NCBI GenBank assembly: GCA_963806185.1
Contig: CAWDXE010000001.1
Location: 416,001 to 480,000, forward strand
Direction: 5' to 3'
DNA: 64,000 nucleotides
DNA from: an uncultured candidate division Zixibacteria bacterium
Lineage (GTDB): Bacteria; Zixibacteria; MSB-5A5; GN15; FEB-12
The first letter of the stretch is position 1; the number at the start of each line of letters is the position of its first letter. The notes under the pieces were generated by a model that was not told the origin of the DNA, did no database searches, and worked only from the letters and a program-made list of their open reading frames with translations. Shown in pieces: positions 23,180-43,819 of this stretch. Both the position numbers and the translations under genes were made by a program.

Positions 23180-23200
23180 CCTGTGTCCTCCGATGTGCTG

Positions 23201-23970: not shown

Positions 23971-23988
23971 GATTGAAAAGAGAACTAG
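23971..23988 (-). promoter_or_regulatory. Island motif copy A (upstream of ECF sigma/radical SAM)
   Basis: CTAGTTCTCTTTTCAATC-N10-TTGATC-N16-TATTTT. Confidence 0.7.
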
Positions 23989-24343
23989 TCCTTTGGATTG
24001 ATACCCCACCGCCGCGAAGGATCGGGCATAATGCCGAAAGATGATAAGGCGTTGACCACCAACCACCAAGTGCATGCGCAGTCAACACTTCACGTCCTCT
24101 TCCCAGTGATGCCGGTAGAACTGTCTCAAGCTTTGCGAAGATAAAGCTGGGCGTTTGACCGTTTTGGTCGTATATATACATATACGACCACCGAATCGAT
24201 CATTTCTCAAGCCTTGCTCTAACCCATCAATCCTTGTCAAATCTTTGATCGGGTGTCGTACGCGCATTGGCGCGATCGCAAAACTCCGACGGGACCCACG
24301 TCAGAGTCTTTTGCGAGTTCCTGCAATGAAAGGAAGATGCCAC

Positions 24344-24577
24344 GTGAATATCTATGTAAGCAACGTTTCCCCGGCGACCTCACTGTCGGATCTCCGGGGC
24401 TGCTTCGAAATCTACGGTGAAGTGACCAAAGCCACCATCAGCACGTACAAGGTCGAGGGCAAACCGCGACGCATGGGAACAATCCAAATGCCCTTCAACC
24501 ATCACGGCCTCGCCGCCGTTGCCGCCCTCCATGGCCGGGAATTGGACGGCGCTATGATTACGGTACGCGAAGAGTGA
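24344..24577 (+). CDS. RRM RNA-binding protein
   Basis: MNIYVSN..L...FE.YGEV..A.L.G.EL.G..I.V; RNP1 is degenerate. Confidence 0.85.
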   Translation: MNIYVSNVSPATSLSDLRGCFEIYGEVTKATISTYKVEGKPRRMGTIQMPFNHHGLAAVAALHGRELDGAMITVREE

Positions 24578-24644
24578 CGCGACTCATTCGCAGGGTGACG
24601 ATGTCGCAGGTTCCTGCGGCCGGTCGTACCCGGAGAGGCAACTG

Positions 24645-24806
24645 ATGTTAATCGTAGCTTGGATCGTGTTTGGGGTAATTCCCGGTTTCCTCGCCTGCAC
24701 TCTCGCTGCCGTTACCGGCCGTCTGGCAATCTGGCAGCCACAGCCGAGCCACGAACTGTACCGCCCGGTCTGCGAAACCCATGACTATGGCAACCTCGGT
24801 CAATAG
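24645..24806 (+). pseudogene. Possible remnant of a GlsB/YeaQ/YmgE (transglycosylase-associated) membrane protein
   Basis: MLIVAWIVFGVIPGFLA resembles the family N-terminus, then similarity is lost; GGAGAGG RBS. Confidence 0.4.
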
Positions 24807-24843
24807 CCGTCCGGATGTATCATTCCCGCTTCAGACCTGGGGA

Positions 24844-24861
24844 TTAGTCCCTTTTTCAATC
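24844..24861 (+). promoter_or_regulatory. Island motif copy E (upstream of GT4)
   Basis: TTAGTCCCTTTTTCAATC-N10-TTCCGA-N16-TATACT. Confidence 0.7.
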
Positions 24862-25020
24862 GTTTGGTCGATTCCGAATTCGACCAACCACCCTATACTG
24901 TTGCTTGCGAGTGTTGACTGATGAGTGGACGCGACGATCGCCGACCATGGGTCGCCTTCAACGTATATTCTACAAGCGTCCAATCCGTCCTGATCCACTG
25001 CTGGAAAGGAATGTCTAAAA

Positions 25021-27282
25021 TTGCGAAACGGAATCGACAGCTCGATCATCAAGCGCATTGCATTTGTCGGCAATTACCTGCCGCGCCGATGCGGCATCGC
25101 CACCTTCACCACGGATTTGTGTGAGGCCATAGCGGCCGAACGTGAGGGGACAACCTGTATTGCCGTTCCCGTCAATGACACCGATGTCGGGTACGAATAC
25201 CCTGCGCGCGTTCGCTTTGAACTCTCGGAGAAGGATATCGAATCGTATCGTCGCGCCGCCGATTTCCTGAATATCAATAATGTCGATCTTGTCTGCCTGC
25301 AGCACGAATACGGCATTTTCGGGGGGCGTGCCGGCAGCCACATTCTGGCTCTCCTGCGCGAACTGCGCATGCCGATTGTCACAACCCTGCACACCATTCT
25401 GGCCGAGCCGGATGCAGATCAACGATGGGCGCTGGAGGAAATCGCGAAGCTCTCAGACCGTCTCGTTGTCATGAGTCAGCGCGGCAAGGACTTTCTGACC
25501 GATGTCTACCACGTGTCCGCAAACAAAGTCGATCTCATCCCGCACGGTATCCCGGACGTTCCATTTGTCGACCCCAGTTTTCACAAGGATCTCTTCGGCG
25601 TCGAGGGTAAAATGGTCCTGCTCAGTTTTGGACTGCTCTCCGCGAGCAAGGGGATCGAAAATGTCATTGAGGCTTTGCCGGCGATTCTCGCTTTACACCC
25701 AAACGTCGTCTACATAATTCTCGGTGAAACTCATCCGCACGTGAAGGAGACGGACGGGGAAGCATACCGGCTCTCCCTACAATGGCTCGCCCGCGAGCGA
25801 GGCGTCGAAGGTAATGTCATCTTCTACAATCGGTTCGTCAGCCTGGAAGAATTGATCGAATTCATCGGCGCGGCCGACATATATATCACTCCCTATCTCA
25901 ACAAGGCGCAGATCACCTCTGGTACCCTGGCCTATACTCTGGGCGCGGGAAAGGCGGTGATTTCCACACCCTATTGGTACGCTGAAGAAATGCTCGCCGA
26001 AGAGCGAGGCGTTCTCGTGCCGTTTCACGATCCGGCTGCGCTCGCACAAAAGGTAACCGACCTGTTGAACGACGAAGCCGGCCGCCATGCGATGCGTAAG
26101 AGGGCGTACCTGTTCGGCAGGGAAATGATTTGGCCGGAGGTGGCGCATCGTTACCGCGAAACCTTCGAGCGCGCCCGGGCTGATCGTCGGCACTTCTCCA
26201 GCCCCGGATACACTGTCAAAGCCCTCGACAAGCACCCCGGCGAACTGCCCCCAGTGAAGCTTGATCACCTGCGCAATATGACCGACGAAACAGGTATCCT
26301 CCAGCACGCCATTTTCACGATCCCCAATTATCACGAAGGATATACGACCGACGACAATACCCGTGCCCTCATCGTGAGCGCGCTGCTTGAGGATCTGGGT
26401 AATCAGGATGCCTTTGACCTGGCCTCGCGCTACCTTGCTTTCATCTGGTACGCGTACAATGCCGATACCGGGCGCTTCCGTAATTTCATGACTTATCAGC
26501 GCACCTGGTTAGAGGCGAACGGATCGGACGACAGCCACGGTCGCGCCCTATGGGCACTGGGCACTGTGCTTGGTCGATCCAATACTCCTGCGCTTCACAG
26601 CATGGCCGGATGGTTATTTGAACAGGCGCTCCCCGCCATTCTCGGCACTACCAGTCCCCGTGCGTGGGGTTTTGCCCTTATCGGCATCCATGAATATCTC
26701 CGCCGCTTCGCCGGCGACCGTCGTGCCAGCCAGGTTCAGGAAGAATTATCCCAGCGACTCCTGTCCTTGTATGAGCGTTGTCGCTCCGACGACTGGTGCT
26801 GGTACGAAGAGGGATTAACCTACTGCAATGCCGTCCTTCCTCATGCGTCGTTGATCTGCGGACAGTCCATTCAGAGCACGGCCATGATCGATGCCGGACT
26901 GGAATCACTTGCCTGGCTCAGCAATATCCAACGGGCCAGCAAAGGGGGCCACTTTGTCCCGATCGGATCCAATGGCTTCTACCGCAAGAGTGGCGAACGT
27001 GCTCGCTTTGACCAACAGCCGGTCGAGGGCCAGGCGATGGTTTCTGCCTGTCTTGAGGCGTTTCGACTTACGAAGGATATCCGCTGGCGCAAAGAAGCCC
27101 AGCGCGCCTTTGAATGGTTCCTGGGCCGCAACGACTTGAACTTATCTATCTACGACCCAACCACGGGTGGATGTCGCGATGGTTTGCATCCTGATCGCCC
27201 CAATGAAAATCTCGGCGCCGAATCTACTCTGGCCTTTCTCCAGTCCCTGCTGGAACTCCGCCTGGCAGAGAACACTTTCTAA
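25021..27282 (+). CDS. GT4 glycosyltransferase fused to a C-terminal alpha-helical glycosidase-like domain
   Basis: PRRCGIATFT, QHEYGIFGG, SGTLAY..G.GK.VISTPY; C-terminal GILQHA..GYTTDDN, FDQQP.E, N.N.GAESTLA. Confidence 0.92.
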   Translation: MRNGIDSSIIKRIAFVGNYLPRRCGIATFTTDLCEAIAAEREGTTCIAVPVNDTDVGYEYPARVRFELSEKDIESYRRAADFLNINNVDLVCLQHEYGIFGGRAGSHILALLRELRMPIVTTLHTILAEPDADQRWALEEIAKLSDRLVVMSQRGKDFLTDVYHVSANKVDLIPHGIPDVPFVDPSFHKDLFGVEGKMVLLSFGLLSASKGIENVIEALPAILALHPNVVYIILGETHPHVKETDGEAYRLSLQWLARERGVEGNVIFYNRFVSLEELIEFIGAADIYITPYLNKAQITSGTLAYTLGAGKAVISTPYWYAEEMLAEERGVLVPFHDPAALAQKVTDLLNDEAGRHAMRKRAYLFGREMIWPEVAHRYRETFERARADRRHFSSPGYTVKALDKHPGELPPVKLDHLRNMTDETGILQHAIFTIPNYHEGYTTDDNTRALIVSALLEDLGNQDAFDLASRYLAFIWYAYNADTGRFRNFMTYQRTWLEANGSDDSHGRALWALGTVLGRSNTPALHSMAGWLFEQALPAILGTTSPRAWGFALIGIHEYLRRFAGDRRASQVQEELSQRLLSLYERCRSDDWCWYEEGLTYCNAVLPHASLICGQSIQSTAMIDAGLESLAWLSNIQRASKGGHFVPIGSNGFYRKSGERARFDQQPVEGQAMVSACLEAFRLTKDIRWRKEAQRAFEWFLGRNDLNLSIYDPTTGGCRDGLHPDRPNENLGAESTLAFLQSLLELRLAENTF

Positions 27283-27302
27283 TCCATGGAGATGCACCCC
27301 CA

Positions 27303-28244
27303 ATGAACAATTCGCACCCCGAACTCCTTCGGCGTCATAAACTCAATCCGATTCTAACTGCCGCCAACTGGCCCTATCCCGTCAACAGCGTCTTCAATCC
27401 AGGTGCCACGTTGCTGGGCGACGGCACAACGCTGTTGCTGTGTCGGGTGGAGGATCGGCGCGGACAGTCGCACCTCTGCGCCGCCCGCTCCGCCAACGGT
27501 GTCGACGGATGGCGGATCGATCCCCAACCGACGTTGCTACCGGACCCCAGGAATTTTCCGGAGGAGATTTGGGGTATCGAGGACCCGAGAATCACCTTCG
27601 TCCCGGAACTCGACCAATACGCCGTAGTGTATACTGCTTTCACTCGCGATGGACCAGGGGTGGCCTTGGCAACAACTGAAGACTTCCAGACATTCAAGCG
27701 CTTTGGGGTCATCATGTCCCCCGAGGACAAAGATGCGACTCTCTTGCCGCATCGTATCGACGGCCGCTGGGCTCTGATTCACCGTCCAATCAGCTCACCA
27801 AGAGCTCACATGTGGATATCGTATTCGCCCGATCTGACTCACTGGGGAGGTCACAAGCTCATGCTTGAAGCTCGACGGGGCGGATGGTGGGATGCAAACA
27901 AGATAGGTCTTTCGCCGCCACCGATAGAAACTCCGCAAGGCTGGCTGGTGATGTACCACGGTGTGCGATACACTGCCGCCGGCGCCATATATCGCCTCGG
28001 TCTTGCACTCTTCGACCTGAAGGCGCCCGAGGTATGTCTCAAGCGCTGCAATCAGTGGGTCTTCGGCCCCGAAGAACCGTACGAATTACATGGTGATGTA
28101 GGAAATGTTGTATTCCCCTGCGGCTATACCATTCTCCCCGACGGCGACACTGTCCACTTCTATTATGGCGCTGCCGACACGAGCATCGCGCTTGCGACGG
28201 GCAGTATACGTGCTATGCTCGATTGGCTGGACAAAGAAGATTGA
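27303..28244 (+). CDS. GH130-family glycosidase/phosphorylase
   Basis: NPIL, VFNPGA, EDPRIT, DKDA, HRP, YHGV, VVFPCG, YYGAAD motifs. Confidence 0.92.
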   Translation: MNNSHPELLRRHKLNPILTAANWPYPVNSVFNPGATLLGDGTTLLLCRVEDRRGQSHLCAARSANGVDGWRIDPQPTLLPDPRNFPEEIWGIEDPRITFVPELDQYAVVYTAFTRDGPGVALATTEDFQTFKRFGVIMSPEDKDATLLPHRIDGRWALIHRPISSPRAHMWISYSPDLTHWGGHKLMLEARRGGWWDANKIGLSPPPIETPQGWLVMYHGVRYTAAGAIYRLGLALFDLKAPEVCLKRCNQWVFGPEEPYELHGDVGNVVFPCGYTILPDGDTVHFYYGAADTSIALATGSIRAMLDWLDKED

Positions 28245-29078: not shown

Positions 29079-30035
29079 ATGGTCGGAATGGGAAACAGGA
29101 CAGTTTTATTTGGGTGCACTGTCGCCATCGTGATTTGTTCGGTTCTGCCAGAAGCAGGATTGCGCGCAGCGATATCCACGCCAACCTCAGTCACGCTCAC
29201 CTGGACCGCGCCCGGAGATGATCACATTACTGGGCGGGCGTCAACTTACGATATCCGGTACTCCCTCGCGACAATCACCAGCGCCAATTGGGCCAACGCT
29301 GCCAGAGTGACTGGCATCCCTGCTCCGAAGGTGGCTGGTAGTGCTGAATCGTTCGAGGTCACGGGTCTGATCTCAAACACGGCTTACTACTTTGCGATGA
29401 GAGTCGGCGACGAAGTCCCCAATTGGTCGGCAATGTCCAACGTGATCAAGAAATCGACCTCGAAGGAGACCACGCCGCCTTCTGCGATCGCCAATTTGGC
29501 GGCCGGAAATGCCACAATTTCAAGCGTCGCCCTTACCTGGACTGCGCCGGGGGATGACGGCACCATCGGAACCGCCACCACCTATGATATCCGCTATGCG
29601 ACAGCCGCGATCACGACGGCCAACTGGGCGTCAGCCACCAAGGTGACAGGCATCCCAGCACCCAAGGTAACCGGCAGCGCCGAGAGCTTCACGATCGCCG
29701 GCCTGAGTTCCTCGACCAAATATTACGTTGCAGTCAAGACGGCTGATGAGGTTCCCAACTGGTCGTCACTCTCAAACGTACCTACGGTGACGACTTGCGG
29801 CGGCTTTTGTATCGGCACGTCAGGGAATGTCGACTGTTCGCCTGACGAGTCAGTGGATATCGTAGATCTAACGACCTTGCTCAGGTACCTGTTCGCCACA
29901 TCAGATACCGCTTGTATCTGCCTCGCCGAAGCCAATATCGATGTTGACCTCGCCAACAGCGTAGACATAGCCGACCTCTCACGACTGATCGACTACTTGT
30001 TCCTCTCACATAATCCGCTGTCCGCCTGCCTATGA
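29079..30035 (+). CDS. Secreted protein with two fibronectin type III domains and a dockerin-like tail
   Basis: Two LTWTAPGDD..YDIRY..DEVPNWS..SN repeats; C.GT.GNVDC..VDI.DL tail. Confidence 0.9.
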   Translation: MVGMGNRTVLFGCTVAIVICSVLPEAGLRAAISTPTSVTLTWTAPGDDHITGRASTYDIRYSLATITSANWANAARVTGIPAPKVAGSAESFEVTGLISNTAYYFAMRVGDEVPNWSAMSNVIKKSTSKETTPPSAIANLAAGNATISSVALTWTAPGDDGTIGTATTYDIRYATAAITTANWASATKVTGIPAPKVTGSAESFTIAGLSSSTKYYVAVKTADEVPNWSSLSNVPTVTTCGGFCIGTSGNVDCSPDESVDIVDLTTLLRYLFATSDTACICLAEANIDVDLANSVDIADLSRLIDYLFLSHNPLSACL

Positions 30036-30645: not shown

Positions 30646-31086
30646 TCATTGAGGCTTCTTCTTCTTTGCCCACCGAGCCAACGCCGCCTTTCGTGCGGCA
30701 TCGCTCCGTTGCCTTTTCGTCAGAGTCTTCGCTCGGGCTTTGCCACCCTTGAGGCCGCCCAGTCTTCCCAAAAAGACCGCGGCGGGGTTTTTAGTCGAAC
30801 TACCGGAGGCGGGTCCATTTGAAGGCGATTCACTTGCAGGTGCGTCCGTATCGGTCGATACCGACTCATCCGTTGAAGTGGATTTCCCCGGCGGATTTCC
30901 AATAGCCGATTCATCGGCAGTAGTTTTGGAGGGTTTGCCGTTGGGATCGCTGGGAACTGTCCCGTCCTGAGGCCTCTCCTTGGCGGTCTCGTCCGCCCGC
31001 TGTCCATTTGCGGTTCGATCTGCCAGTGAATTCGCCAACTCGTCGTGGTCAGCATTTTCTGCGGATGGCCGCTCTTCCGTGCTCAT
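30646..31086 (-). CDS. Low-complexity protein with basic KNPAAVxLGRLGGLKGGKARA C-terminal motif
   Basis: Recognisable basic motif; upstream TTGACA-N17-TATGTT promoter at 31174-31202. Confidence 0.7.
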   Translation of the reverse strand: MSTEERPSAENADHDELANSLADRTANGQRADETAKERPQDGTVPSDPNGKPSKTTADESAIGNPPGKSTSTDESVSTDTDAPASESPSNGPASGSSTKNPAAVFLGRLGGLKGGKARAKTLTKRQRSDAARKAALARWAKKKKPQ

Positions 31087-31267: not shown

Positions 31268-32812
31268 TCACTCCGTGCCCGGACTCTCCCCGATTACCAT
31301 CTTCACGCGATCGCCGGCCTTGAAGACGGCATCCGTTTGAGTCTGGTTGATGATGGCCAATGTCTCAAGCGAAGCCGACGATCCTGCTTGTTTAGCCAGA
31401 ACTCCCAGCGTCGACTCCGTTTTGACCGTCAATATCTTCAGGCGTTGCGGCTGCACCTGGAGGATTTTCGAATCGGTCAGGTGCCGGAAACTTCCCAACG
31501 AGCTGACAATGATCTGCTGATATTTTCCCCAGAGCTGCTCAGTTGTATAGCCAAGCAATTGGTAAACATGCCCCTTGTGTTCGACAAATGCCGCCTTACC
31601 CTGCAACACTCCCTGATCGGTTTGCGCCTGGAATTTTGCGGAAGCGGCGGGGAGGCCATTGACCTTGCCTGTCTCAAGGCGCTCGGCCGTCATTCCCTCC
31701 TGTGCGAAGAATTGCTTGGCCGCCGTCGCGCTGGAGTTTCCCTGAGCCATTGTGATTTGCAGTACCGCATCCTGGTTTGAACTGACTGCCGCCACAGCTT
31801 CGTTCTGATTCACCGTCTGCCAACTGGAAGGGAACTCGAACTCGAACTCGAGATCTGGCTGGTAGAAATGACTTCCGCGGAAGAAGCCGTCGCGCGGATT
31901 CTTACCGAATACCACACCATCGATACGTTTGAGATAGCTGTCCTGATTTACGGTTAAGCGATCCAGATTGAGCGTGAGGGTATCAACCTCCTTCTGAAAA
32001 GCCGCGCTCCGGTTTTCCGGGTTCGGATGAGTCTCAAGCCATTCCGGCACGCTTCCCCCGCCGCCGGCCAGACTGACGCGATTCAGCATATCGAACACCT
32101 GGATCATCTGACGCGGGTCATTTCCCGCCCGAACCATATAGCGAAAGCCGAGATGATCCGCCTGACTTTCATCGTCGCGACTGTATTTCAAATACAACAG
32201 CCCCAGCCCGGCGTTGAGATACTGCGCGTATTTCTGAAGTCCCGGCTTAATCATCATGCCGGCCGTCACGCCAAGCTGCGTTAATTCCTGGTTGGACATG
32301 CTGTGAACCGCATGTTGTGCGGTCACATGACCGATCTCGTGTCCAATCACCCCGGATAGCTCCGCTTCGTTCTCCACGTATGTTAACAGGCCGCGGGTGA
32401 CATAAATGAAGCCCCCAGGTAAGGCAAATGCATTCACGGCCGGGTCATTTACCACTCGAAAGGTCCACGGTAGAGTGGGTCGTTCTGAGTTCTTCGCCAA
32501 TTTGGTGCCCAGCTCCGCCACGTAGCGCTGCAAGGCCGAATCTTCATAAAGCCCGAGAGTGGCCACTACCTGTGAATCAGCCTCCCGACCCATCGCGATC
32601 TCCCGTGATTCGCCGATCAGATTGAGGTGCCTTTCGCCCGTCGCAAGATTCATGGCGCAGGTCGCCATGATCAGAACCGTCGCCGGCACAATCAGTGCGA
32701 AACCCACACAGGTCATGGTGCGCTTCAAGCCACGGCCGACGCCGCAATCGCCAACATCCGAATGGAGACGATTGCGACATCCCAGTGAATTGCTCCTGTT
32801 CTTCATCATCAC
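31268..32812 (-). CDS. M48 family metalloprotease (true start probably ~30 codons downstream)
   Basis: NAFALPGG, GHEIGH, YSRDDE.QAD, THP motifs. Confidence 0.92.
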   Translation of the reverse strand: MMMKNRSNSLGCRNRLHSDVGDCGVGRGLKRTMTCVGFALIVPATVLIMATCAMNLATGERHLNLIGESREIAMGREADSQVVATLGLYEDSALQRYVAELGTKLAKNSERPTLPWTFRVVNDPAVNAFALPGGFIYVTRGLLTYVENEAELSGVIGHEIGHVTAQHAVHSMSNQELTQLGVTAGMMIKPGLQKYAQYLNAGLGLLYLKYSRDDESQADHLGFRYMVRAGNDPRQMIQVFDMLNRVSLAGGGGSVPEWLETHPNPENRSAAFQKEVDTLTLNLDRLTVNQDSYLKRIDGVVFGKNPRDGFFRGSHFYQPDLEFEFEFPSSWQTVNQNEAVAAVSSNQDAVLQITMAQGNSSATAAKQFFAQEGMTAERLETGKVNGLPAASAKFQAQTDQGVLQGKAAFVEHKGHVYQLLGYTTEQLWGKYQQIIVSSLGSFRHLTDSKILQVQPQRLKILTVKTESTLGVLAKQAGSSASLETLAIINQTQTDAVFKAGDRVKMVIGESPGTE

Positions 32813-32848
32813 ATCATCCTATCAGCTTTGTCGCGCGGCCGACCCGCC

Positions 32849-33088
32849 TCAGACTGCACTGCTGCTTGCGTGGCGCCGCCGCCCAACGACCATTAGTATA
32901 ACGCCTGTCGCCAGGGCTGCCGCTCCGGCAATAGGAGGTACCGGGATCTGTCGATTTTCCCTCACCTCGACATGCATCGGTCCCATGTCGACGACGTTCC
33001 TGTTCGTGGCATAGGTGATTCCGCCATAAATGAGCCCCACAGCACCGATCACAATCAGGATGATGCCAATCAGAGTCATAGTTTTCAT
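32849..33088 (-). CDS. Small membrane protein (DUF3185-like)
   Basis: Two TM helices flanking GGITY..VVDMGP..IPVPP; AAAGGA RBS. Confidence 0.75.
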   Translation of the reverse strand: MKTMTLIGIILIVIGAVGLIYGGITYATNRNVVDMGPMHVEVRENRQIPVPPIAGAAALATGVILMVVGRRRHASSSAV

Positions 33089-33116
33089 TTGTGTTCCTTT
33101 CCTGACGCAATGTGCG

Positions 33117-33266
33117 TCACGCTATTCGTCGGCCGGAAATGACTCGGACCAACACAACTACGAGTGCGACCACCAGCAAGACGTGAATGAAGCCACTCAT
33201 CGTGACGCCGGTTACCAGACCAAGTGCCCACATAATCAGCAGCACTACGGCTAATGTCCAAAGCAT
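33117..33266 (-). CDS. lmo0937-family small membrane protein
   Basis: Translated by hand: MLWTLAVVLLIMWALGLVTGVTMSGFIHVLLVVALVVVLVRVISGRRIA; GAGGAG RBS. Confidence 0.85.
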   Translation of the reverse strand: MLWTLAVVLLIMWALGLVTGVTMSGFIHVLLVVALVVVLVRVISGRRIA

Positions 33267-33343
33267 ATAGCTCTCCTCTTTGTTTGTTGCGGGATCGCTG
33301 CCGTCGTGTGGATCTCAGCATCGACCGGCAGCAATCCGGCAAC

Positions 33344-34132
33344 TCAGTTGGTTGACGACTGCGATGTCTCGACAGTCATTTTGTTGTTTACGCTCTTTAC
33401 CCCATGGATATCGTTGACACGTTTGGTGGCCAGATCGATCTCCGCCTGATTCCTGGCTGTGCCGGTCAGCGTGACAATCCCCTTCTCGGTGGACACTTTC
33501 ATGGGAGACAGACCGTCGCCGTGATGATATCTCATCGACATGCGGACCTGGGACGTGATCGAGGCGTCGTCGATCTTCTCTCCCTTCGATCGGGGCGCCT
33601 TCTCAGGCGACGCTTTCACGGTCATTTGATTATCCACGCCTTTGACACCCGAGACGTCTTTGGCATACTCGGTCGTGAGTTCCTTCTGCGCCGCGCTGGA
33701 CGCCTTGCCTCGAAGGGTCACGTTGCCGTCTGTGACGTCAACGTTGGTGCCCATATAGCTGACACTGCGGTGAAACAGCAGGGTGCTGCGCACGCGTTGA
33801 GCCAGCCAGGCATCTGATCCGGCGCTGGCGGGTGCCTCCGTGACCTTGAGCTGGTTATCGACGCTCTTGACTCCAGCCAAGCCAAGAATGGTTTCTTCCG
33901 CCATTGATCTGTGCGACTCGTCGGACACGGTGCCTGTCAGAGTGACAATGCCTTCCTTTGACTGGATCTTGATGGCATCGTGCTTGAGATAGGTCTTAAA
34001 TACATACGACCGCTTGGCTGACGACTTGATGTTGCCGTCGATGCGTGACGCGTACAAAGGGACACTCGTCACCATCATGAATACGGCCGCTCCGATTACT
34101 ATCGCGATACGGGTTGCGTTGAAGTGTCTCAA
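33344..34132 (-). CDS. OsmY-like protein with three BON domains
   Basis: Three G.VTL.G...GVK.V.N repeats; signal peptide; TTG start after AGGAG. Confidence 0.9.
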   Translation of the reverse strand: MRHFNATRIAIVIGAAVFMMVTSVPLYASRIDGNIKSSAKRSYVFKTYLKHDAIKIQSKEGIVTLTGTVSDESHRSMAEETILGLAGVKSVDNQLKVTEAPASAGSDAWLAQRVRSTLLFHRSVSYMGTNVDVTDGNVTLRGKASSAAQKELTTEYAKDVSGVKGVDNQMTVKASPEKAPRSKGEKIDDASITSQVRMSMRYHHGDGLSPMKVSTEKGIVTLTGTARNQAEIDLATKRVNDIHGVKSVNNKMTVETSQSSTN

Positions 34133-34222
34133 AATATCTCCTGTTTCCTTTCTATTCGATGAGAGTAGCACCATCCCTTTGTGAGTAGTGCCCTCGTCAT
34201 CAGTTTTCGACCCTCACACGGA

Positions 34223-34708
34223 CTAATGCCCGAACGTCCAGCCAATGGTGGCTTTGAAATCGGGGGCGTCTGCCAGGCCAAGTTTTCCCTCCATGAAGAA
34301 ATGCCCTGATTCACTGCGGGACGACCCTTTTCCCACGCCGAACTGCATGTATACACCTGTTTCAGTCTGGCTGCCCCCATGCTTCCACGAGTAGAATATG
34401 GGACCGACTCCACCACCCAGATACGGCGTCCAGGCTCCCCAATCGGAGCGAAAGCGATAGTCAAGTTCAAACGAGGGTGCGACCGTGGTGATGTTGTCGC
34501 CGACGCCGATTTCCAGATTCGGCAGAATCATCAGATTCTCCGAGATATCGCCAAAGTCGATATGTCCACCGAAATGGAACTGATCGGGGTTGACTGTCAT
34601 TCCGAGTCTCGGTCCTATGCCGTGAAACCCGACCGGGCGCTTGCTCCCGAAGGCGGAGACACTGCACAGGAGGCCTGCTATCAGAGTCGCGATTACTAAC
34701 TTCTTCAT
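34223..34708 (-). CDS. Small outer-membrane beta-barrel protein
   Basis: Signal peptide; amphipathic strands; PYLGGG; C-terminal GWTF. Confidence 0.75.
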   Translation of the reverse strand: MKKLVIATLIAGLLCSVSAFGSKRPVGFHGIGPRLGMTVNPDQFHFGGHIDFGDISENLMILPNLEIGVGDNITTVAPSFELDYRFRSDWGAWTPYLGGGVGPIFYSWKHGGSQTETGVYMQFGVGKGSSRSESGHFFMEGKLGLADAPDFKATIGWTFGH

Positions 34709-34774
34709 TATTCAATCCTTTCGAAATGTGGTCGTCCCGTACGCGGGCAGACCAGGTGTCAATCTTTGTCTTGT

Positions 34775-35416
34775 TTATCTCAAGGCGATCTGCTTCGACT
34801 GGCTGGAGAAGAACACGACTTCCGTGCCCGGCCCGTAGAAGATATCTTGCTTGCCGGTCATGACTGACAAGCCTGTGCCGGCGGCGGCACCGGCGGCGGC
34901 ACCGATTTCGGTACTCCCCTTCTTGTCAATGATTTTGCCGATAATCCCGCCGACAATTGCTCCGCCTCCAATCATGGCGACCTCTCTGTTCGTGTGCGAT
35001 CCCTTCTTTTCCATGATCATGTCGGTACCTAGGTTGATCCAATGACCGCTTCCGTCCTGGATGGAGGTCAGACTGAAGTTCAATTCGGCGGGGGTTTTGA
35101 GTCGGCCGGACTCGACAACTTTGTTCAGCACGCCTCTCGCCCCGGCGCCGTCAGCAAACAGGGTGTGTCCGCTTACGACAATGGGTCGAGACAATCTGGC
35201 GCGAAATTCCGCGCCCGTCACCTGAACGTCGGTGTCAATTGAATCGATGAGCGTCACGGCTATTGCCGTGCTCTCTGGCATGGTGACGTAGGCGGTCGTC
35301 TTCACTGCGTCACCGGTAAGTCCGGCGCCTGTTTTTGGTTCCGCCGTGCTGGTGCCGCAGGAAGCGGCCAGGAGCACCAGTGAAACTGATAGTAAGAGAC
35401 TGATTACTTTGAACAC
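34775..35416 (-). CDS. Lipoprotein with glycine-zipper helices
   Basis: LAASC lipobox; GGGAIVGGIIG / IGAAAGAAAG. Confidence 0.75.
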   Translation of the reverse strand: MFKVISLLLSVSLVLLAASCGTSTAEPKTGAGLTGDAVKTTAYVTMPESTAIAVTLIDSIDTDVQVTGAEFRARLSRPIVVSGHTLFADGAGARGVLNKVVESGRLKTPAELNFSLTSIQDGSGHWINLGTDMIMEKKGSHTNREVAMIGGGAIVGGIIGKIIDKKGSTEIGAAAGAAAGTGLSVMTGKQDIFYGPGTEVVFFSSQSKQIALR

Positions 35417-35625
35417 ATAAACTCCTTAATTCCATTCGAAATGACATGGTTAATCTGGGGAATGCTTATTGACCCATTCTGCCGCTCCTGACTCTCCCTG
35501 CGGGCAAGTTGCACGTGCCATCGCAGTTCACTCGATAGAGAAGCTCAACCTGGGGCATAGTCTGGTCTTCAAACAATGTTCTAATAGTCATAACTTCCTT
35601 TCAACGCCTTCTCAAGACACTTACC

Positions 35626-36225
35626 TCACCCCGAAGCGGATGACTGACCCGCAATTGTTTCGTGATCGTTTTCGCCCACGAGATGCGCAAAGAGCTCCTC
35701 ACGGAGAAACTCACGACCCCGATTGAGCAATGAATCGACTGCCAGCGGCTGCACGCCGGCCAGATCGGCAATCTCCACATTGGAGAATCCCTCGAGATAT
35801 GACAGAATCATCACCGAGCGGAAGGTCGGAGGAAGGCCGGCAAATGCCTCGAAGTAGTTTACGTCACCGTCGTATCCGCCGGTCAGCCATGACCGGTGCC
35901 GCGTATCGCCGGTTGCTGCGGAAATCAGCCGGTCGCCGTTGTCAACGCTTTCGCTGGTCACTCCGCCAGAGGTCTGGTTCGGCGGCTGCACGACCTGGCT
36001 GTTTCTGTTAAGGAATTGTCGGGTCAGGATACTATGCAGCCGAACATAACTTTCTTCCGACGTCAACTCGTCCCAATTGTGAACCGCCTCGGCCATCGCC
36101 GACCGCATCAGCTTGACGGCGTCACGCCCGTTCTTTGTTAACCACAGGGAGAATTGCAGAAGGACTTCAATGTGTGGTGAAATCTTTTCCTTGAAGTCCG
36201 CTCTGATTGTGCTGTCGCTCATCAT
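35626..36225 (-). CDS. ECF-type sigma factor, divergent
   Basis: PHIEVL..SLWLTKN..DA; LP..FR.VMIL..LEGFS..EIA...V.SLLNRGR; start reassigned to MMSDS after GAGG. Confidence 0.75.
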   Translation of the reverse strand: MMSDSTIRADFKEKISPHIEVLLQFSLWLTKNGRDAVKLMRSAMAEAVHNWDELTSEESYVRLHSILTRQFLNRNSQVVQPPNQTSGGVTSESVDNGDRLISAATGDTRHRSWLTGGYDGDVNYFEAFAGLPPTFRSVMILSYLEGFSNVEIADLAGVQPLAVDSLLNRGREFLREELFAHLVGENDHETIAGQSSASG

Positions 36226-36438
36226 TATGTAAGTCCTCGCCTTCCATGTCGCGTTGCGAATTTGGTCTCGTTGAGATCCGGAGAGAGAGTGGGCTGCAGT
36301 TGGTGTCGAGAATTCGGAAATCCCTTCCATTCTCGAGATCGTGAGTGTTCTACCCTGGAGCGCCTTGCGCTTCCGGGGGAGAGCTCTCTCCACAGTAGCA
36401 ATTACGATGAAGTGGATGTCCCGGGCAATCCATCACAG

Positions 36439-36456
36439 GATTGAAAAGGGAGCTAG
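36439..36456 (-). promoter_or_regulatory. Island motif copy B (upstream of second ECF sigma)
   Basis: CTAGCTCCCTTTTCAATC-N10-TTGCCC. Confidence 0.7.
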
Positions 36457-36477
36457 TCCTTCAGCGTGTGAAGACAA

Positions 36478-37165
36478 TCACGGTTTGTTTTGGTTAGTCG
36501 CAAACGCCTTCTTGAGAGGGCGCTTGACATTGGCGAAGGCTGCCAATTCCAGTCGTGTATGGAGCGCGAGCTTATCCATGATATTGCGGATGTGACTTTT
36601 GACGGTATAGACTGCGATCTCAAGTATACGAGAGGTCTCCAGGACAGTCTTTTGTTTGGCCAGCAGTTTTATCACCTCTTGCTCCCGATGAGGTCAACTT
36701 GACGGCCTCAATCACCTGGTCCACAGATCCCGCCTGCACGGCGCGCTCGACAATCTGAGAAAACAGCGAATCCGCCATCGTCGGAGGCAGAATCTTGACC
36801 CCTCGGGCAACCGATCTGATCGTGTGCAGGAACTCGTCAAGAGTCGCGTTTCTGGGGATGAATCCGGAGACACCCGCTTTGACGAGGTCGACTGCCTCTG
36901 AATGGGCCGGGATCAGGTCCATGACGATCACCTCGGCCTTGGGGCACTGCGTCCTTATCGAATCGAGCACCTTCAGACTGTTGCGACTCTTGAGTCCCAG
37001 GTCGAGCAATACCACATCCGGCTTCACTTTTTTGGCCCTCTCCAGGGCGCTCTTATTGCCAGGAGACGATACCGCCTCTATGTCCTCCTGCTCGTTGAGT
37101 ACAGAGGTAGTCCCCTCGCGCAAAAGGCGATTATCTTCAATCAGCAGGATCTTTATCTTTGCCAT
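36478..37165 (-). pseudogene. NarL/LuxR response regulator split by a +1 frameshift near 36691 (pseudogene or sequencing error)
   Basis: Removing one base joins REC to KLTHREQEVIKLL..TVKSHIRNIMDKL HTH; paralog of 38407-39141. Confidence 0.8.
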
Positions 37166-37299
37166 ATGTCAACCAAGCTCTCATCAATCGATTTGTGACC
37201 CAACTACGACAGATGTGTTGGTAGGCATGCCGGGACCGGGTCACCACCTGTCCCTTGATATGTATACGGCCGATTCCGGCGGAATTCAATCGCTCGTTG

Positions 37300-37317
37300 G
37301 GATGATAAAGGAACTAG
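37300..37317 (-). promoter_or_regulatory. Island motif copy F (upstream of split LuxR gene)
   Basis: CTAGTTCCTTTATCATCC-N10-TTGAAT-N17-TATACA. Confidence 0.65.
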
Positions 37318-37848
37318 ATCTCTTCTCAGATATTCGAACCGCTAACTTCGGCCCCCCCCTGGTATCTCGTCTAGCGTCTTCAGAGGAAGAGCGCACGTCG
37401 CCGACTATTTTCGCAGGCCAAGCGTTGCCAATCAGAAAGAGATCAGCCTGGAGGTATCTGCATATGCGCGTGTGCTGTTGGGCGCTCGTCCGGGCCGCCA
37501 GTACTGCACACTTGATCAATTCTGCTCGCTCTTCCGCACGCCGTATAGCCGCTTGTCGACTAATTGCGGCCTGGTCGTGCCGATCTGTAATTGGCCGCTG
37601 TGAGTTTATGACCGGCGAAATCGATGCAGGATGATTATCTACAGAAGGCGGACACTCCGCCGACCCATCGGGCAATCGAAAACGGGACCCCGGTGAAATA
37701 AGTGTGTTTGATATCTTATGTATATACATGCAATCTGCCTTCGTGATTAAACCAGGTGATTGTCAACTCATGCCACGGCACGCCTAGACGTGATCCTGTG
37801 GTCTGGCCGCTTCCGGCTGACCATAAATTCTTCTTCGACCGTCGGCCT

Positions 37849-38217
37849 TCAGCCGGAACGTCTGAGCCGTCCGGCCCATGGGTCGGCTTCTCGTTTGGGC
37901 CATTCTCTGGTGACCATTGTCTGCTCGCGCCTGCCTTGTGGCCTGGCATCCAGGTCTTTGGCAAATGCTTCCGCGTAAGCTTTCAGAATGCCGTCCTCAA
38001 GTTGTTTGCGCGTTTCCTGATTGGTCGGGTGGGCAACATCGCAATAGGTACCGTCGCCCCGCCGCCGGCTCGGCATCGACACAAAATACCCGTTGGACCC
38101 CTGGATGACCTTCAACCCGCGGATCACAAAGCAGTCGTCGAAAGTGATGTTGGCAAAAGCTTTGAGTTTCTCCTCATCACGCAGCGTGATACAGATTTCA
38201 GAAATCTTCACGGTCAA
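37849..38217 (-). CDS. spoVG: SpoVG family nucleic-acid-binding protein
   Basis: LKAFANITFDDCFVIRGLKVIQG.NG.FVSMPSR...G.Y.DVAHP. Confidence 0.92.
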   Translation of the reverse strand: MTVKISEICITLRDEEKLKAFANITFDDCFVIRGLKVIQGSNGYFVSMPSRRRGDGTYCDVAHPTNQETRKQLEDGILKAYAEAFAKDLDARPQGRREQTMVTREWPKREADPWAGRLRRSG

Positions 38218-38349
38218 CTCCTTGTCAAACGTTTGACCACCTCTTCACTCAAATCACTGCGTCAGGCAGCGATCTATATTTGGACCGAAGCGAATATCCC
38301 TGACTGATGCAGAATACACGTCACACGATGCCCGGACAATCGCCCGAAA

Positions 38350-38367
38350 GATTGAAAAATGGATGAG
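38350..38367 (-). promoter_or_regulatory. Island motif copy C (upstream of spoVG)
   Basis: CTCATCCATTTTTCAATC-N10-TTGTCC-N17-TATTCT, with an overlapping second copy 11 bp upstream. Confidence 0.7.
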
Positions 38368-38406
38368 AAAGGGATTAGATCGGTGAGAGGGCTACGGTAA
38401 GGGGAG

Positions 38407-39141
38407 TCAATCGTCTTCTGCCAGGGTCTTTTTGGAGCCTGACGAAGTAAGAGCAAGTTTGGCAACTTCCAACCGGCTGTGGATGGCGAGCTTTTCCAGA
38501 ATATTGTGCACATGGCTCTTGACCGTGTGAACAGCAATATTCAGTTGTGACGCGATTTCCTTATTGCTCCTGCCCTGTGCAATCAAGTCAATAACGTCCT
38601 GCTCCCGTCTGGTCATCCGGACCGACTCGATCAGCGTCCCCACCTTGCCTGATTGGAGCGCATGTTCCACGATCTGCGAAAAGAGTGATCCCGTCAGCGA
38701 CGGCGGCAGTATCTTCGTACCCTGGGCCACCGATCGTATGGTGTGGAGAAAGTCATCCAGTGTGGCGTCCTTGAGAATAAAACCTGAGACTCCGGCCCTG
38801 ACATATTCGGCGACGTCCGCTTGCACAGGGATGAGGTCCATCACGATCACATCGGTCCTGGAAAATTCTCGCTTGATACTTTCGACTACTTTGAGGCTGT
38901 TGGCACTGCGCAGACCGAGATCCAGCAATACGACATGCGGCTTCAGCTTGCGGGCCTGCTCGAGCGCATCACCGTTGCCTGTTGTCGAGACAGCCCTGAT
39001 ATCGGGCTCTTGGTTAAGCATGGCCGCGATGCCTTCGCGCAGCAGACGATTGTCCTCCATCAGCAACACGCGAATCTTCGCCACCACAGTTCGTGACTTT
39101 GAAGCGGCGGTCCTGACTTTAGGCACAGAGATATCCTCCAC
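38407..39141 (-). CDS. NarL/LuxR-family response regulator (intact)
   Basis: REC (MEDN, LLDLGL) plus T.RE..V..LIA.G.SNKEIA.QL.I..HTVKSHV.NILEKL. Confidence 0.93.
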   Translation of the reverse strand: MEDISVPKVRTAASKSRTVVAKIRVLLMEDNRLLREGIAAMLNQEPDIRAVSTTGNGDALEQARKLKPHVVLLDLGLRSANSLKVVESIKREFSRTDVIVMDLIPVQADVAEYVRAGVSGFILKDATLDDFLHTIRSVAQGTKILPPSLTGSLFSQIVEHALQSGKVGTLIESVRMTRREQDVIDLIAQGRSNKEIASQLNIAVHTVKSHVHNILEKLAIHSRLEVAKLALTSSGSKKTLAEDD

Positions 39142-39167
39142 CTATGAATTACTTAAGAACCACAAAA

Positions 39168-39196
39168 AGTATGATGCTTTCCAAGATTCCTGTCAA
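39168..39196 (-). promoter_or_regulatory. Sigma70-type promoter of the intact LuxR gene
   Basis: TTGACA-N17-CATACT on the minus strand. Confidence 0.65.
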
Positions 39197-39421
39197 CACT
39201 TTTTTGGTGTTTTCGGCCACTAAGTACATATACTGCCAGTACTTCCCCGCCGGGGGGGCTGCCCTACTCACTAATTGTCCAAAAATACACCGAATTTCGC
39301 CAGCTTGAAGGTACACAGGTAATGCGTTACCTTGGGGGGTTGGCCGCGCCTACGAATCGCAGCCCGAGTGAAACCATAGTATGATGCGCATGGAGTAGTT
39401 TTCATCCAAAAGGCAGCAAAC

Positions 39422-40891: not shown

Positions 40892-41013
40892 ACCATTCAA
40901 CGTCCGCGCCGGTTCACATACTGCTGCAGAGCCGGCAGGCCTGACCGCATCAACGTTCAACTGGATCAGAATCACTGATTCACATCACCGAACAAAGACC
41001 CCGGCTACTCCAG

Positions 41014-41673
41014 CTAAAATCCTGTATCGAGGATGAGATCTCTCACGCCGACGATGGCAAACTGCATGGCAATGCAGACGAGCAGAAACCCCATGATTCT
41101 CGAAAGGCTATCGACCCCGTTGACGCCCAGGTACCGCTGCATAAATCCTGCAGCACGGAGAACCAGCCACGATATGATGGCCGTGAGGAGGACGGCAATC
41201 ACAACTCCGGAGTAGGCGATCACCTTATCAATGCCATGCTGGCTGTCGATGGTTGACGACATCGTGATAACAACGGCGATGGAGCCGGGTCCGCTCAGAC
41301 TTGGCATGGCGAGCGGACTGAATGCGAGATTCCGCTTCTGCCGGGCTTCCATTTTGCCTGCCGTGGTGAGGCGATTCTCGCCGGGGAACAGCATTCGCAA
41401 CCCCAGAATTCCTATGACCAGTCCGCCTGCAAGGCGAATACCCGGAATGGAAATACCAAAGGCTACCATGATCAGGTGTCCGGCAAGGAGGAAGGCGACC
41501 AGGATACCTGTCATATAGATGCACGCCCAGATGATCTGACGGTTTCGCTCTCTTTTGCTCAGGTGTTCGCTGATACCGAGCAGGAGTATCGCCGTGCTGA
41601 CCGGATTGATGACGGGAAGCAGCGTCACGAGTGCGACGCCGACCCAGGAGAGCATGTCGGTTAATTCATTCAT
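41014..41673 (-). CDS. marC: MarC family membrane protein
   Basis: INP, FGIS...R.AGG, PLAMP.L.GPGSIA, RIMGFLL. Confidence 0.92.
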   Translation of the reverse strand: MNELTDMLSWVGVALVTLLPVINPVSTAILLLGISEHLSKRERNRQIIWACIYMTGILVAFLLAGHLIMVAFGISIPGIRLAGGLVIGILGLRMLFPGENRLTTAGKMEARQKRNLAFSPLAMPSLSGPGSIAVVITMSSTIDSQHGIDKVIAYSGVVIAVLLTAIISWLVLRAAGFMQRYLGVNGVDSLSRIMGFLLVCIAMQFAIVGVRDLILDTGF

Positions 41674-41837
41674 GATCCATCAATCTCTGTTCGGCTTGCA
41701 TTGTTGGACGATTCTGGCTGTGGCTTCGCGTCCGGGATACCGAATAGCTTCACCCTTCTCGCGTCAGTCCTCCACGAGGCCGATGATGCAAACTCGCCGG
41801 ATCCCTCTCACCAATTATCTACCGCAAAGCTTACGCT

Positions 41838-42080
41838 TTACGGAGTAAGGACTTTTATTGGATGCGACGCATACTGTCTGGCTGCACGCCGCTCATAACT
41901 GTTGATGCCGCCGATGACTTGATGCCGTACATCCGATGATGTGATTCCCTCCCGATATATGATTCCTCCCGCAACCTTGCGAGCTACTTCGTCGCTGATC
42001 CCAGCCGCCGTAATAGAAGCTTTGATCTTGTCCTTGCGAAATTCCTCTTTGACTCCTGATCGTTTCGTGATTGTGCGCAT
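41838..42080 (-). CDS. Stand-alone ATP-cone domain protein
   Basis: ITKRSG.KEEF..DKI..SI..AG..ITSSDVR; AAGAGGAAGG RBS. Confidence 0.8.
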   Translation of the reverse strand: MRTITKRSGVKEEFRKDKIKASITAAGISDEVARKVAGGIIYREGITSSDVRHQVIGGINSYERRAARQYASHPIKVLTP

Positions 42081-42159
42081 TTGCCCTTCCTCTTCCTTAC
42101 TGTTCTGTACTCAGTCGCTCTTCACAACGCCCAACTAAATCAAGAAGGGTCGTGAGACA

Positions 42160-42528
42160 TTAGTCCACGAGTTTGCGAAGCACCTCGGTTGCACCGGTTA
42201 TCCGCATCCACCGCTTCTCGGACAGAAGTGCAATCAACGCTACTACCGGTACAAGCAGGTAGACTGCGCCAATGACGATACCGACAATTGCCTTGCTGAT
42301 TGGCTCCCACGGCATGAAGATGAGTAACGCGAGCGGTACGAGCACCAGTCCCGCACCGATAAGCGTTATAACAAAGACCAGCAGGCAGATGAGGATCAGA
42401 ATCCGGTGCGCGCTCTTGACTCCTTCGAGATAATAGACGGCTGCCCGGAGCTTGAGCATTTTAACCGACGGCTCAAGGTAGGTGGTTTTAAGCCAGTCGA
42501 GCACACCCTGTATTAGTGAGTGTATCAC
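42160..42528 (-). CDS. Two-TM membrane protein (YqjE-like partner of DUF883)
   Basis: Two hydrophobic helices; lies directly downstream of the DUF883 gene. Confidence 0.6.
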   Translation of the reverse strand: MIHSLIQGVLDWLKTTYLEPSVKMLKLRAAVYYLEGVKSAHRILILICLLVFVITLIGAGLVLVPLALLIFMPWEPISKAIVGIVIGAVYLLVPVVALIALLSEKRWMRITGATEVLRKLVD

Positions 42529-42531
42529 GGC

Positions 42532-42843
42532 TTAGTCCTTTCGTGACCGGCCCAACATGAACCCGCACAGCAATGCGGCAAAGGCTGCACCACCGATGTA
42601 TGCCCACGGATTTTTGTGCACGCTGGCGTCGATATTGGTCGCAACATCGACAATCTTCTGCTTCCCGGCTTCATACTTCTCGCCGGCCCGTGACTTCATC
42701 TGGTCGGTAAACGCGCTCACCACGCCTGATAGGTCGGAGTACTTGTGCTCCATCACTTCCTGGAGTTCTGCTTTCTTGTCGCGCGCGACCTGATTCAGCA
42801 GGTCCAGCGCCTCGTTAATACGCTTGTCCTCAAATCGATCCAT
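42532..42843 (-). CDS. DUF883 (ElaB/YqjD-like) protein
   Basis: Helical body with C-terminal VHKNPW..IG.A...GFMLGR. Confidence 0.85.
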   Translation of the reverse strand: MDRFEDKRINEALDLLNQVARDKKAELQEVMEHKYSDLSGVVSAFTDQMKSRAGEKYEAGKQKIVDVATNIDASVHKNPWAYIGGAAFAALLCGFMLGRSRKD

Positions 42844-43105
42844 CTCTGAATCCTCCTTCTTTTGTGTTGGATTTAGCCTCGCACAAAGTTGTGCTCATTG
42901 GATATAATATAGCAATCAAACCCCTCCGGGCCAAGGGAAGCAGTATCACCATAGTATCCTCGTGTCCTTTTCCTGCCGGTTTATCTCGGAATCGCCGCCG
43001 ACGTGTGCGTCCGTGCGATGGTCGGCAGCGATCCGATAATTCTACCAATTGTGCACTCTTCCGGTCAAGCGATCTTCTGACGCGAACTTGCTAAACGACC
43101 TGATT

Positions 43106-43666
43106 TCAGAGGCGGAACAGCAGACCAAAGTTCAGGGAATAGAAATTCGCATCCGTGCCGTCCAACACTGCATCGGGCAGTTCCTTGAACTTGGTGTCAA
43201 GAAACACATAGCGAACATCGCCGAACAGCTTAATACTGGGTGAAGCTGGTAATTCGATCCCGGCAGCAAGATGCCATCCGAACTCCTGAGTGGTCTCATC
43301 AGCAAAGCCGGCTTGATTGTAGGTGTCGGCGTAATCCAGGGTCGTGTTGTACCATCCCCCTCCCACACCTCCATAGATGAAACTCACCGGGTAGAGCAGA
43401 CCGGTGACTGTCACTGGCCACTGCTTGACCGTGACCGCTCCCGAACCGAATTTCTCCTGTCGATAGCCAATATCACCTTCCGCACCGATTACCGACATAA
43501 GCTTGAGGCGCATCGTGGCTCCCACCAGATAATTCGCGTCCTGAGCATCTTGAGATTTCTGGACACCGAGATGAGGACCCACATATACGCTCGTTTGACT
43601 CCGAACGGACAAGGGCACTAGAATGAGAATCCCCAGAAGGATTCCAGCGCTGATCTTTCTAAACAC
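43106..43666 (-). CDS. Outer-membrane beta-barrel protein
   Basis: Signal peptide; G.G.Y, FGWHL.AG.E, C-terminal GLLFRL. Confidence 0.85.
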   Translation of the reverse strand: MFRKISAGILLGILILVPLSVRSQTSVYVGPHLGVQKSQDAQDANYLVGATMRLKLMSVIGAEGDIGYRQEKFGSGAVTVKQWPVTVTGLLYPVSFIYGGVGGGWYNTTLDYADTYNQAGFADETTQEFGWHLAAGIELPASPSIKLFGDVRYVFLDTKFKELPDAVLDGTDANFYSLNFGLLFRL

Positions 43667-43801
43667 GTTATTCTCCTACGTTTGTCAAGTTTACCTGCGG
43701 ATACGAATATGCGGTTGCGCATGTCCTCAGCAGGTACGATGTGCTGCCTGAGCACTAGTATGAACTTACGAAGGACGATGCGACAAATCTATCGCCCAAA
43801 G

Positions 43802-43819
43802 GGTTGAAAAAGGAGCTAC
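43802..43819 (-). promoter_or_regulatory. Island motif copy D (upstream of the beta-barrel gene)
   Basis: GTAGCTCCTTTTTCAACC-N10-TAGATT-N17-TAAGTT. Confidence 0.65.

Follow-up and report, generated by a model that had tools for sequence, protein, structure and literature searches.

The question raised by this locus is which protein reads a sequence box that lies at one fixed place in front of six promoters of an uncultured Zixibacteria bacterium from sediment, and what these promoters serve. The window, by which we mean the whole stretch of 64,000 nucleotides that was analysed (C1:416001-480000), belongs to a 3.65-Mb assembly of 8 contigs that is 82% complete. An earlier note on this DNA had described an 18-bp motif placed 10 bp upstream of the -35 hexamer of six promoters, and had proposed that an intact LuxR-type regulator uses it as the master activator of a multi-tier general-stress cascade. 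The analysis presented here points to an operator of about 45 bp at six weak sigma-70-type promoters, most likely bound by LuxR1, a regulator encoded at 38407..39126 on the minus strand, which would probably activate them in a single tier.

The six 18-mers, with lowest coordinates 23971, 24844, 36439, 37300, 38350 and 43802, each occur once, five on the minus strand and the one at 24844 on the plus strand, and 10 nt separate each of them from the -35 hexamer that had been quoted for it. In a genome-wide motif scan of the kind suggested earlier as a check, run with position weight matrices (PWMs), the six sites stand clear of all other positions. An 18-mer PWM places them at ranks 1-6, and a 33-mer PWM gives them 39.5-44.3 bits against 19.7 bits for the next genome position, a separation of about 20 bits. 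Every site that is held out from training ranks 6th of 7,291,102 positions, right after the five training sites. A PWM built from relatives only scores the six sites at 25.9-41.4 bits and the next match in the genome at 9.4 bits, and no seventh copy above this score is present in the 82%-complete assembly. Identity among the six copies is 70% in the core and 27% upstream, in the spacer between -35 and -10 and downstream. Since the copies are unrelated outside the element, segmental duplication is rejected as their origin. The box is a genuine, selected motif.

The position and spacing of the 18-mer were thus described correctly, but the element itself is longer. When positions are counted from the first base of the 18-mer, it spans about -14 to +30, or about 45 bp, and takes in the supposed 10-nt spacer, where G22, C25 and A27 recur in 98%, 80% and 100% of 228 sites from relatives, respectively. 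The consensus over these sites is roughly TCAcccAAAGAT(G/C)TAGTYCCTTTTTCA(T/A)(C/T)CYTTYGNNCKATTG from -14 to +30, and a weaker 25-bp repeat extends to -14. In two related loci (L224:6722-6802 and L229:5102-5159), boxes stand back to back and diverge, with upstream ends that overlap or nearly do so, which suggests that such pairs share upstream half-sites.

Copy 1 of the operator (23958..24002, minus strand; the 18-mer at 23971-23988 plus flanks) is followed by the -35 hexamer TTGATC (23955-23960) and by TATTTT as the -10 hexamer after a 16-bp spacer. Copy 2 (24830..24874, plus strand) precedes TTCCGA (24872-24877) and TATACT, also with 16 bp. The other four copies are on the minus strand. Copy 3 (36426..36470), directly behind the paralogue luxR2, precedes TTGCCC and, at 18 bp, the imperfect -10 TAATTG; copy 4 (37287..37331), which occupies the same place between tandem luxR genes in relatives, precedes TTGAAT and TATACA at 17 bp. 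Copy 5 (38337..38381) lies behind luxR1, at a distance of about 40 nt from its stop codon, carries an extra half-site with an 11-bp period and precedes TTGTCC and TATTCT at 17 bp. Copy 6 (43789..43833) precedes TAGATT and TAAGTT at 17 bp. The TAxxxT-like -10 elements claimed for all six promoters are perfect TAnnnT hexamers at four of them, two with 16-bp and two with 17-bp spacers; TATACA and TAATTG are imperfect. A gene for an RNA-binding protein with an RNA recognition motif (RRM; 24347-24577, plus strand) lies between the two divergent boxes, copies 1 and 2, and genes of this kind are found again in 13 related loci.

The same promoter geometry is seen in relatives. TTG occupies positions 28-30, right after A27, and T51, A52 and T56 emerge without being modelled at 71%, 80% and 93% of the 228 relative sites. 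TAnnnT starts at offset 51, which gives a sigma-70 spacer of 17 bp, in 150 of 242 dereplicated sites and at any other offset in 20 or fewer; it is found at offset 51 in 52 of 109 sites of an independent, motif-first set of 122 metagenome loci with a mean length of 3.3 kb. TTGACA serves as the -35 hexamer in just two of the 242 sites, indicating that the box-linked promoters are weak. These observations support the view that the box is a promoter-fixed putative operator adjoining the -35 hexamer of six weak sigma-70-type promoters. The box also contains a short inverted repeat, CAATC-N8-GATTG, and many copies come after a stop codon, as might be expected if it were an RNA hairpin, a terminator, a recombination site or a dispersed mobile repeat. 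This is exceedingly improbable, because nearly every base pair in both candidate hairpins is formed as often as after shuffling of the alignment columns, Rfam has no match in 20000-47000, the T-run comes before the repeat and not after it, and the fixed downstream -10 would be left unexplained. The absent covariation and the silence of Rfam in this interval largely refute a hairpin or terminator.

When the -10 hexamer is set at -12 to -7, positions 12-18 and 21-27 of the box fall at -51 to -36 and form an imperfect 7-2-7 inverted repeat, TCA(A/T)(T/C)CY-TT-YGNNCKA, which is centred at -43.5 and touches the weak sigma-70 -35. A direct half-site, TAGTCCY (positions 1-7), lies 11 bp, or one helical turn, upstream of this dyad. 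The parsing into half-sites is a model, in which the dyad is imperfect and the start sites are predicted. As described for E. coli NarL, a 7-2-7 site is centred at -43.5 in yeaR (PMC10853779) and a site at -44.5 in ogt (PMC7419079), and the direct repeat bound by ComA has an 11-bp period (PMC4797271). By analogy, a LuxR1 dimer would bind the imperfect dyad near -43.5, aided by the upstream TAGTCCY, and would recruit RNA polymerase in the way described for NarL at yeaR. Repression, too, is known from the NarL family, and with the box right against the -35, a LuxR-family protein could instead shut the promoters off by blocking this hexamer. We consider repression very unlikely: the box keeps its position to the base pair in hundreds of sites, next to a -35 that is already weak (TTGACA in 2 of 242), it overlaps neither the -10 nor the start, and its geometry equals that of an activating NarL site.

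The box goes with one family of regulators. When a PWM trained on the window alone is applied to 80 loci collected around homologues of luxR1, it yields 219 sites, spread over 73 of these loci, against one in a reversed-sequence control, and the loci with both the box and the regulator family span Zixibacteria and Ignavibacteria/Bacteroidota. In a set of 150 luxR-family copies, which includes the copy from the analysed genome and some genomes fetched twice and holds 140 distinct proteins, the box lies directly behind 103 copies. In a comparison set of 150 Zixibacteria genomes (G000 left out), 32 have both the regulator and the motif, 7 the regulator only, 5 the motif only and 106 neither, so that the box is present in 32 of 39 genomes with the regulator and in 5 of 111 without it. 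Of the seven regulator-only genomes, five show a degenerate or still recognisable box behind the gene, another lacks it altogether, and in the last only part of the gene is matched. When loci are collected by the motif first, 41 of the 122 metagenome loci carry the luxR1 family, and no other cluster of transcription factors recurs in more than three of them, as inspected by the first residues of the clustered open reading frames (ORFs) and not by Pfam.

The position of the box relative to the regulator genes differs between two types of luxR gene. It lies upstream of only 3 of 92 luxR1-type genes as against 29 of 43 luxR2-type paralogues, which supports a hierarchy in which the luxR1-type gene would stand outside its own regulon and luxR2-type genes among the targets. 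In agreement with the earlier description of luxR1 as having a near-consensus promoter instead of a box, TTGACA-N17-CATACT, a near-consensus sigma-70 promoter, is found at 39168..39196 on the minus strand without an operator, and LuxR1 would be made from this box-free promoter of its own. In high-GC loci, luxR1-type genes are often preceded by a TTGACA-like promoter (13 of 39 under a strict pattern). The intact LuxR protein, previously named as the activator, is thus the most likely candidate for binder and activator, and it appears to act from outside its own regulon.

LuxR1 consists of a receiver and a GerE-type helix-turn-helix (HTH) domain (PF00072 and PF00196 are both matched); the database call has 239 aa, and the ORF itself reaches as far as a GTG at 39141. 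Its best sequence match in the PDB is 1a04 (NarL, E=2e-29), and 3c3w (DosR/DevR) is also matched. A structure model (pLDDT 78) has a fold like those of DesR, LiaR, VraR and NarL, which confirms the family only. Among the NCBIfam models listed for LuxR1, no named orthologous group reaches its cut-off, the best, NarL, giving 136.7 bits where 250 are needed. The best named relatives are from Zixibacteria, and a quick tree of 118 rows, with submitter titles as labels and paralogues mixed, places LuxR1 inside a supported, mostly Zixibacteria clade. The family comprises at least 7,284 sequence clusters at E<=1e-50. The recognition helix is nearly invariant among the 150 copies (T206 in 150, K208 in 149 and H210 in 145), and the box is likewise invariant. 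Since the helix hardly varies, co-evolution of helix and motif is uninformative.

The receiver keeps the canonical residues E29 (150/150), D30 (148/150), D74 (150/150) and K124 (147/150). At the switch position (T), which is aligned to the Ser of NarL and the Thr of VraR, 145 of 150 copies (135 of 140 distinct proteins) have Asp (D102) and none has Ser or Thr, and the following T+1 position is Leu (L103) in 147 of 150. Judged by these residues, the LuxR1 receiver is a predicted pseudo-receiver in the sense defined in PMC12632262. A domain scan finds no histidine kinase in the cluster, and the only HisKA_3 kinase of the genome (C1:913640-914882) adjoins a different, canonical regulator. From the Asp in place of Thr/Ser, the Leu at T+1 and the lack of a cognate kinase nearby, we infer that LuxR1 is probably not switched by a standard phosphorelay, and control by a ligand or a partner protein is favoured. 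In Ignavibacteria versions of the cluster, a KaiC-family ATPase is present in 20 loci and a PAS histidine kinase in 14, often directly behind a box (L080:1863-3596 and L045:714-2000); the two could be either targets or partners.

Several points weigh against this interpretation. In the symmetry scan, the dyad centre at 19.5 comes 4th over all loci and 2nd among those of high GC, and centres at 1.5-3 and at 21.5 outrank it. Substitutions at T need not abolish phosphorylation according to the source of the pseudo-receiver definition (PMC12632262), the family retains the Asp that would be phosphorylated together with the acidic pair and the Lys, and the PAS histidine kinase recurs together with KaiC in 14 relative loci. 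The label of a stress regulon rests on family names, and one paper describes lmo0937 as PrfA-regulated and as not previously known to be sigma-B-regulated. Physical linkage and the non-independence of kin inflate the co-occurrence of box and regulator, and five genomes have pattern matches and no family member, either at E<=1e-40 or by profile. Among these five, two have weak matches with two mismatches, and two are fragmented assemblies with the matches near contig ends. G027, which is 99% complete, has one good box before an orthologue of the outer membrane protein (OMP) gene (L228:8451-8481), probably a relic. An unlinked factor, either another transcription factor or the upstream element of an alternative sigma, might therefore read the box, with luxR as a passenger; G027 and the other four genomes are what it would predict, and linkage alone can produce co-occurrence. 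It is nevertheless highly improbable, because 106 of 111 Zixibacteria genomes without the family have no site, and because luxR1-type genes are mostly box-free upstream, so that they are not mere targets.

With LuxR1 as the favoured reader of the box, the role of its paralogue has to be considered. luxR2 (36478..37165, minus strand) has its receiver in one frame (36620-37165) and its HTH in another (36478-36690), separated by a single frameshift near 36690, just before the HTH and outside any homopolymer, which is either decay or an assembly error. Arg replaces the conserved receiver Lys, and luxR2 is intact in relatives. A spoVG-like gene (37849..38217, minus strand) is inserted between luxR1 and luxR2; together with about 500 nt of non-coding DNA and an extra box, it makes up an insertion (37318-38336) between genes that are adjacent in relatives. 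Tandem paralogues are common and the two halves of the dyad are unlike each other, as would fit a LuxR1-LuxR2 heterodimer that binds asymmetric half-sites in the manner of BldM-WhiI, for which there is a described precedent (PMC4125116). Such a heterodimer is quite unlikely, since the same box is kept in many genomes with a single family member (G121 has one family match and 11 sites) and all six sites are intact in an assembly in which luxR2 is broken. The retention of the box in single-member genomes indicates that LuxR1 alone likely suffices.

Every box heads a gene or a tight operon, and the gaps downstream are short. Behind copy 1 are a gene for a degenerate sigma-like protein B (23201-23806) and a B12 radical SAM gene (21620-23179; together 21620..23806, minus strand), and behind copy 2 are genes for a GT4 glycosyltransferase and a GH130 protein (25021..28244, plus strand). 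Copy 3 heads the gene for sigma-like protein A (35626..36225, minus strand), followed by a probable operon (31268..35416, minus strand) for a glycine-zipper lipoprotein (34775-35416), an OMP (34223-34708), a triple-BON OsmY-like protein (33344-34174), a DUF5670-like protein (33117-33266), a small membrane protein (32849-33088) and an M48 peptidase (31268-32812), all on the minus strand. Copy 4 heads luxR2 and copy 5 spoVG, and copy 6 heads a probable operon (41014..43666, minus strand) for an OMP beta-barrel, an ElaB-like protein, a membrane protein, an ATP-cone protein and MarC. Orthologues in relatives are likewise preceded by the box: 15 of 15 for sigma-like A, 10 of 14 for GT4 and 5 of 8 for the OMP. 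In 14 related loci, a lipoprotein with an Ig domain and an ice-binding-like domain (PF11999) lies behind a box (L090:8091-9167); it is absent from the window.

The earlier proposal of a multi-tier cascade, in which LuxR1 would activate two working ECF sigmas and LuxR2 and these would in turn drive a second tier of stress genes, draws on the box before all 15 sigma-like A orthologues and before 29 of 43 luxR2-type genes, and on relatives that have both an intact partner sigma, more canonical and just behind sigma-like A, and an intact luxR2; a second tier may exist there. The proteins of the window do not bear it out. Region 4 is present in both sigma-like proteins (PF08281, E=3e-9 and 4e-8), but neither matches Sigma70_r2 (PF04542), and none of the 14 matches to this domain in the genome lies within the window; on TIGR02937 the two proteins score 30.1 and 32.8 bits, under the cut-off of 42.9. 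The DAED-like acidic motif of region 2 is replaced by DAVK or RAEY, and this replacement is conserved in the sigma-like A clade. The probable partner sigma of the window (35466..35591, minus strand) is a syntenic remnant of 41 codons in which N- and C-terminal bits are fused, matched weakly at E 0.03-0.4. No shared second-tier promoter motif was seen by eye upstream of the lipoprotein, OMP, BON and DUF5670 genes in orthologous regions, where no formal motif search was made. With luxR2 frameshifted and the stress genes in tight operons with short gaps behind the boxes, one activation tier suffices, and a cascade is quite unlikely; the regulon could be explained without luxR2 and the sigma-like genes, which here seem to be decayed or non-canonical. 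The sigma-like A clade, which is conserved in Zixibacteria and has region 4 only, occurs in many Zixibacteria loci, where it always follows a box and in most cases precedes a more canonical sigma. Weak PhyR sigma-like matches are also present, and sigma-like A could be a sigma mimic.

The output of LuxR1 would consist of envelope and general-stress-type proteins. In other bacteria, the stress genes osmY, elaB, csbD and ytxH depend on RpoS or SigB. The resemblance to such genes that had been noted for the targets holds for the OsmY-like BON protein, ElaB and DUF5670, while the stress role itself rests on family names; a stress reading of the regulon is plausible from what the gene products resemble. 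An Ignavibacteriales chromosome (G152) has all its 22 pattern matches within 69 kb of 3.87 Mb, in a region that holds three family members and genes for dodecin, LysM, DUF1508, transglycosylase-associated, DUF5670, AI-2E, YtxH-like, OmpA and GT4/GH130 proteins. The regulon is thus self-contained, as had been claimed, in the window and in this chromosome, but not in all genomes: sites are spread over 5 contigs in G011 and 4 in G003.

Whether the cluster is an island, as it had been called, is weakly supported by composition. Its GC content of 54.9%, against a mean of 56.5%, is matched or undercut in 3% of 160 segments of the same size, but its tetranucleotide distance is unremarkable, being surpassed in 11% of them, and no tRNA gene is present within the 64-kb window. 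The regulator family itself is patchy, being present in 39 of 150 Zixibacteria relatives. At the edge of the cluster, a low-complexity ORF of 146 aa (30646-31086, minus strand) without a Pfam match ends in a basic 'GRLGGLKGGKARAK' motif, and we take its product to resemble small proteins associated with mobile elements. Elsewhere in the window, four secreted proteins (14353-15675, 16967-19168, 29079-30035 and 47762-50344) have in common a C-terminal, Cys-rich dockerin-like domain (CC..G..GNVDC...DIGDLT), likely a lineage-specific anchoring or sorting domain. Two neighbouring ORFs at 47762-53459 (minus strand) carry near-duplicate G8-domain repeats and are possibly one large surface protein that has been split.

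A broader reading, which we regard as possible while short of probable, sees in the system a master switch for general stress that has not been described before, in Zixibacteria as well as in Ignavibacteria/Bacteroidota. A constitutive pseudo-response regulator of the NarL family, with an invariant Asp for the switch Thr, would sense a ligand or a partner rather than a kinase and control a portable regulon with a job like that of RpoS or SigB, the conserved sigma-like target without region 2 being maybe a sigma mimic. If this were true, the promoters of the portable regulon would share one design and number up to 20 or more. Literature searches found no described regulon of this kind for the phyla concerned and no paper on this motif or regulon, although the supplements of comparative-genomics papers, which lay outside their scope, could hold one. 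For a family of over 7,000 clusters to which databases give no label beyond 'NarL/FixJ family', the analysis predicts the operator, the layout of the promoters and the targets; in uncultured bacteria, the box may also help to locate stress-type genes whose function is unknown. A review of 2025 (PMC12632262) regards the on-off switching of pseudo-receivers as an open question. With its precise box of 45 bp and its sigma-70-type promoters, the family is amenable to E. coli reporters and inducer screens.

Among known systems, DosR/DevR of M. tuberculosis is a NarL-family master activator with a largely clustered stress and dormancy regulon; it differs in its box, in being paired with cognate sensor kinases and in regulating itself, whereas luxR1-type genes are mostly without an upstream box. 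VpsT binds cyclic di-GMP through a motif that we take to be W[F/L/M][T/S]R, and the matching position of LuxR1 reads ILPP, so that this motif is absent. Like the pseudo-receivers of BldM-WhiI, VpsT and CsgD as described in PMC12632262 and PMC4125116, LuxR1 is an orphan that lacks the T among the five active-site residues and has a bulky T+1; in contrast to them, with T commonly Ala (PMC12632262), the LuxR1 family, which comprises more than 7,000 clusters, has a near-invariant Asp. ComA of B. subtilis is a tetrahelical HTH activator with an inverted repeat and an 11-bp-period direct repeat in one promoter (PMC4797271), but it serves quorum sensing, the direct repeat comes after the inverted one, whereas the extra direct half-site described here is upstream, and the sequences differ. 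E. coli NarL differs from LuxR1 in having a switch Ser and phosphorylation by NarX, where LuxR1 has Asp and no adjacent kinase, and the box described here has another half-site sequence, an extra direct half-site with an 11-bp period and clustered stress-type targets. NarL and LuxR1 nevertheless belong to the same protein family, and as described for yeaR and ogt, where an upstream second site can help, a 7-2-7 repeat abuts the -35 with its centre at -43.5 or -44.5 (PMC10853779, PMC7419079), the placement that is predicted for the LuxR1 operator.

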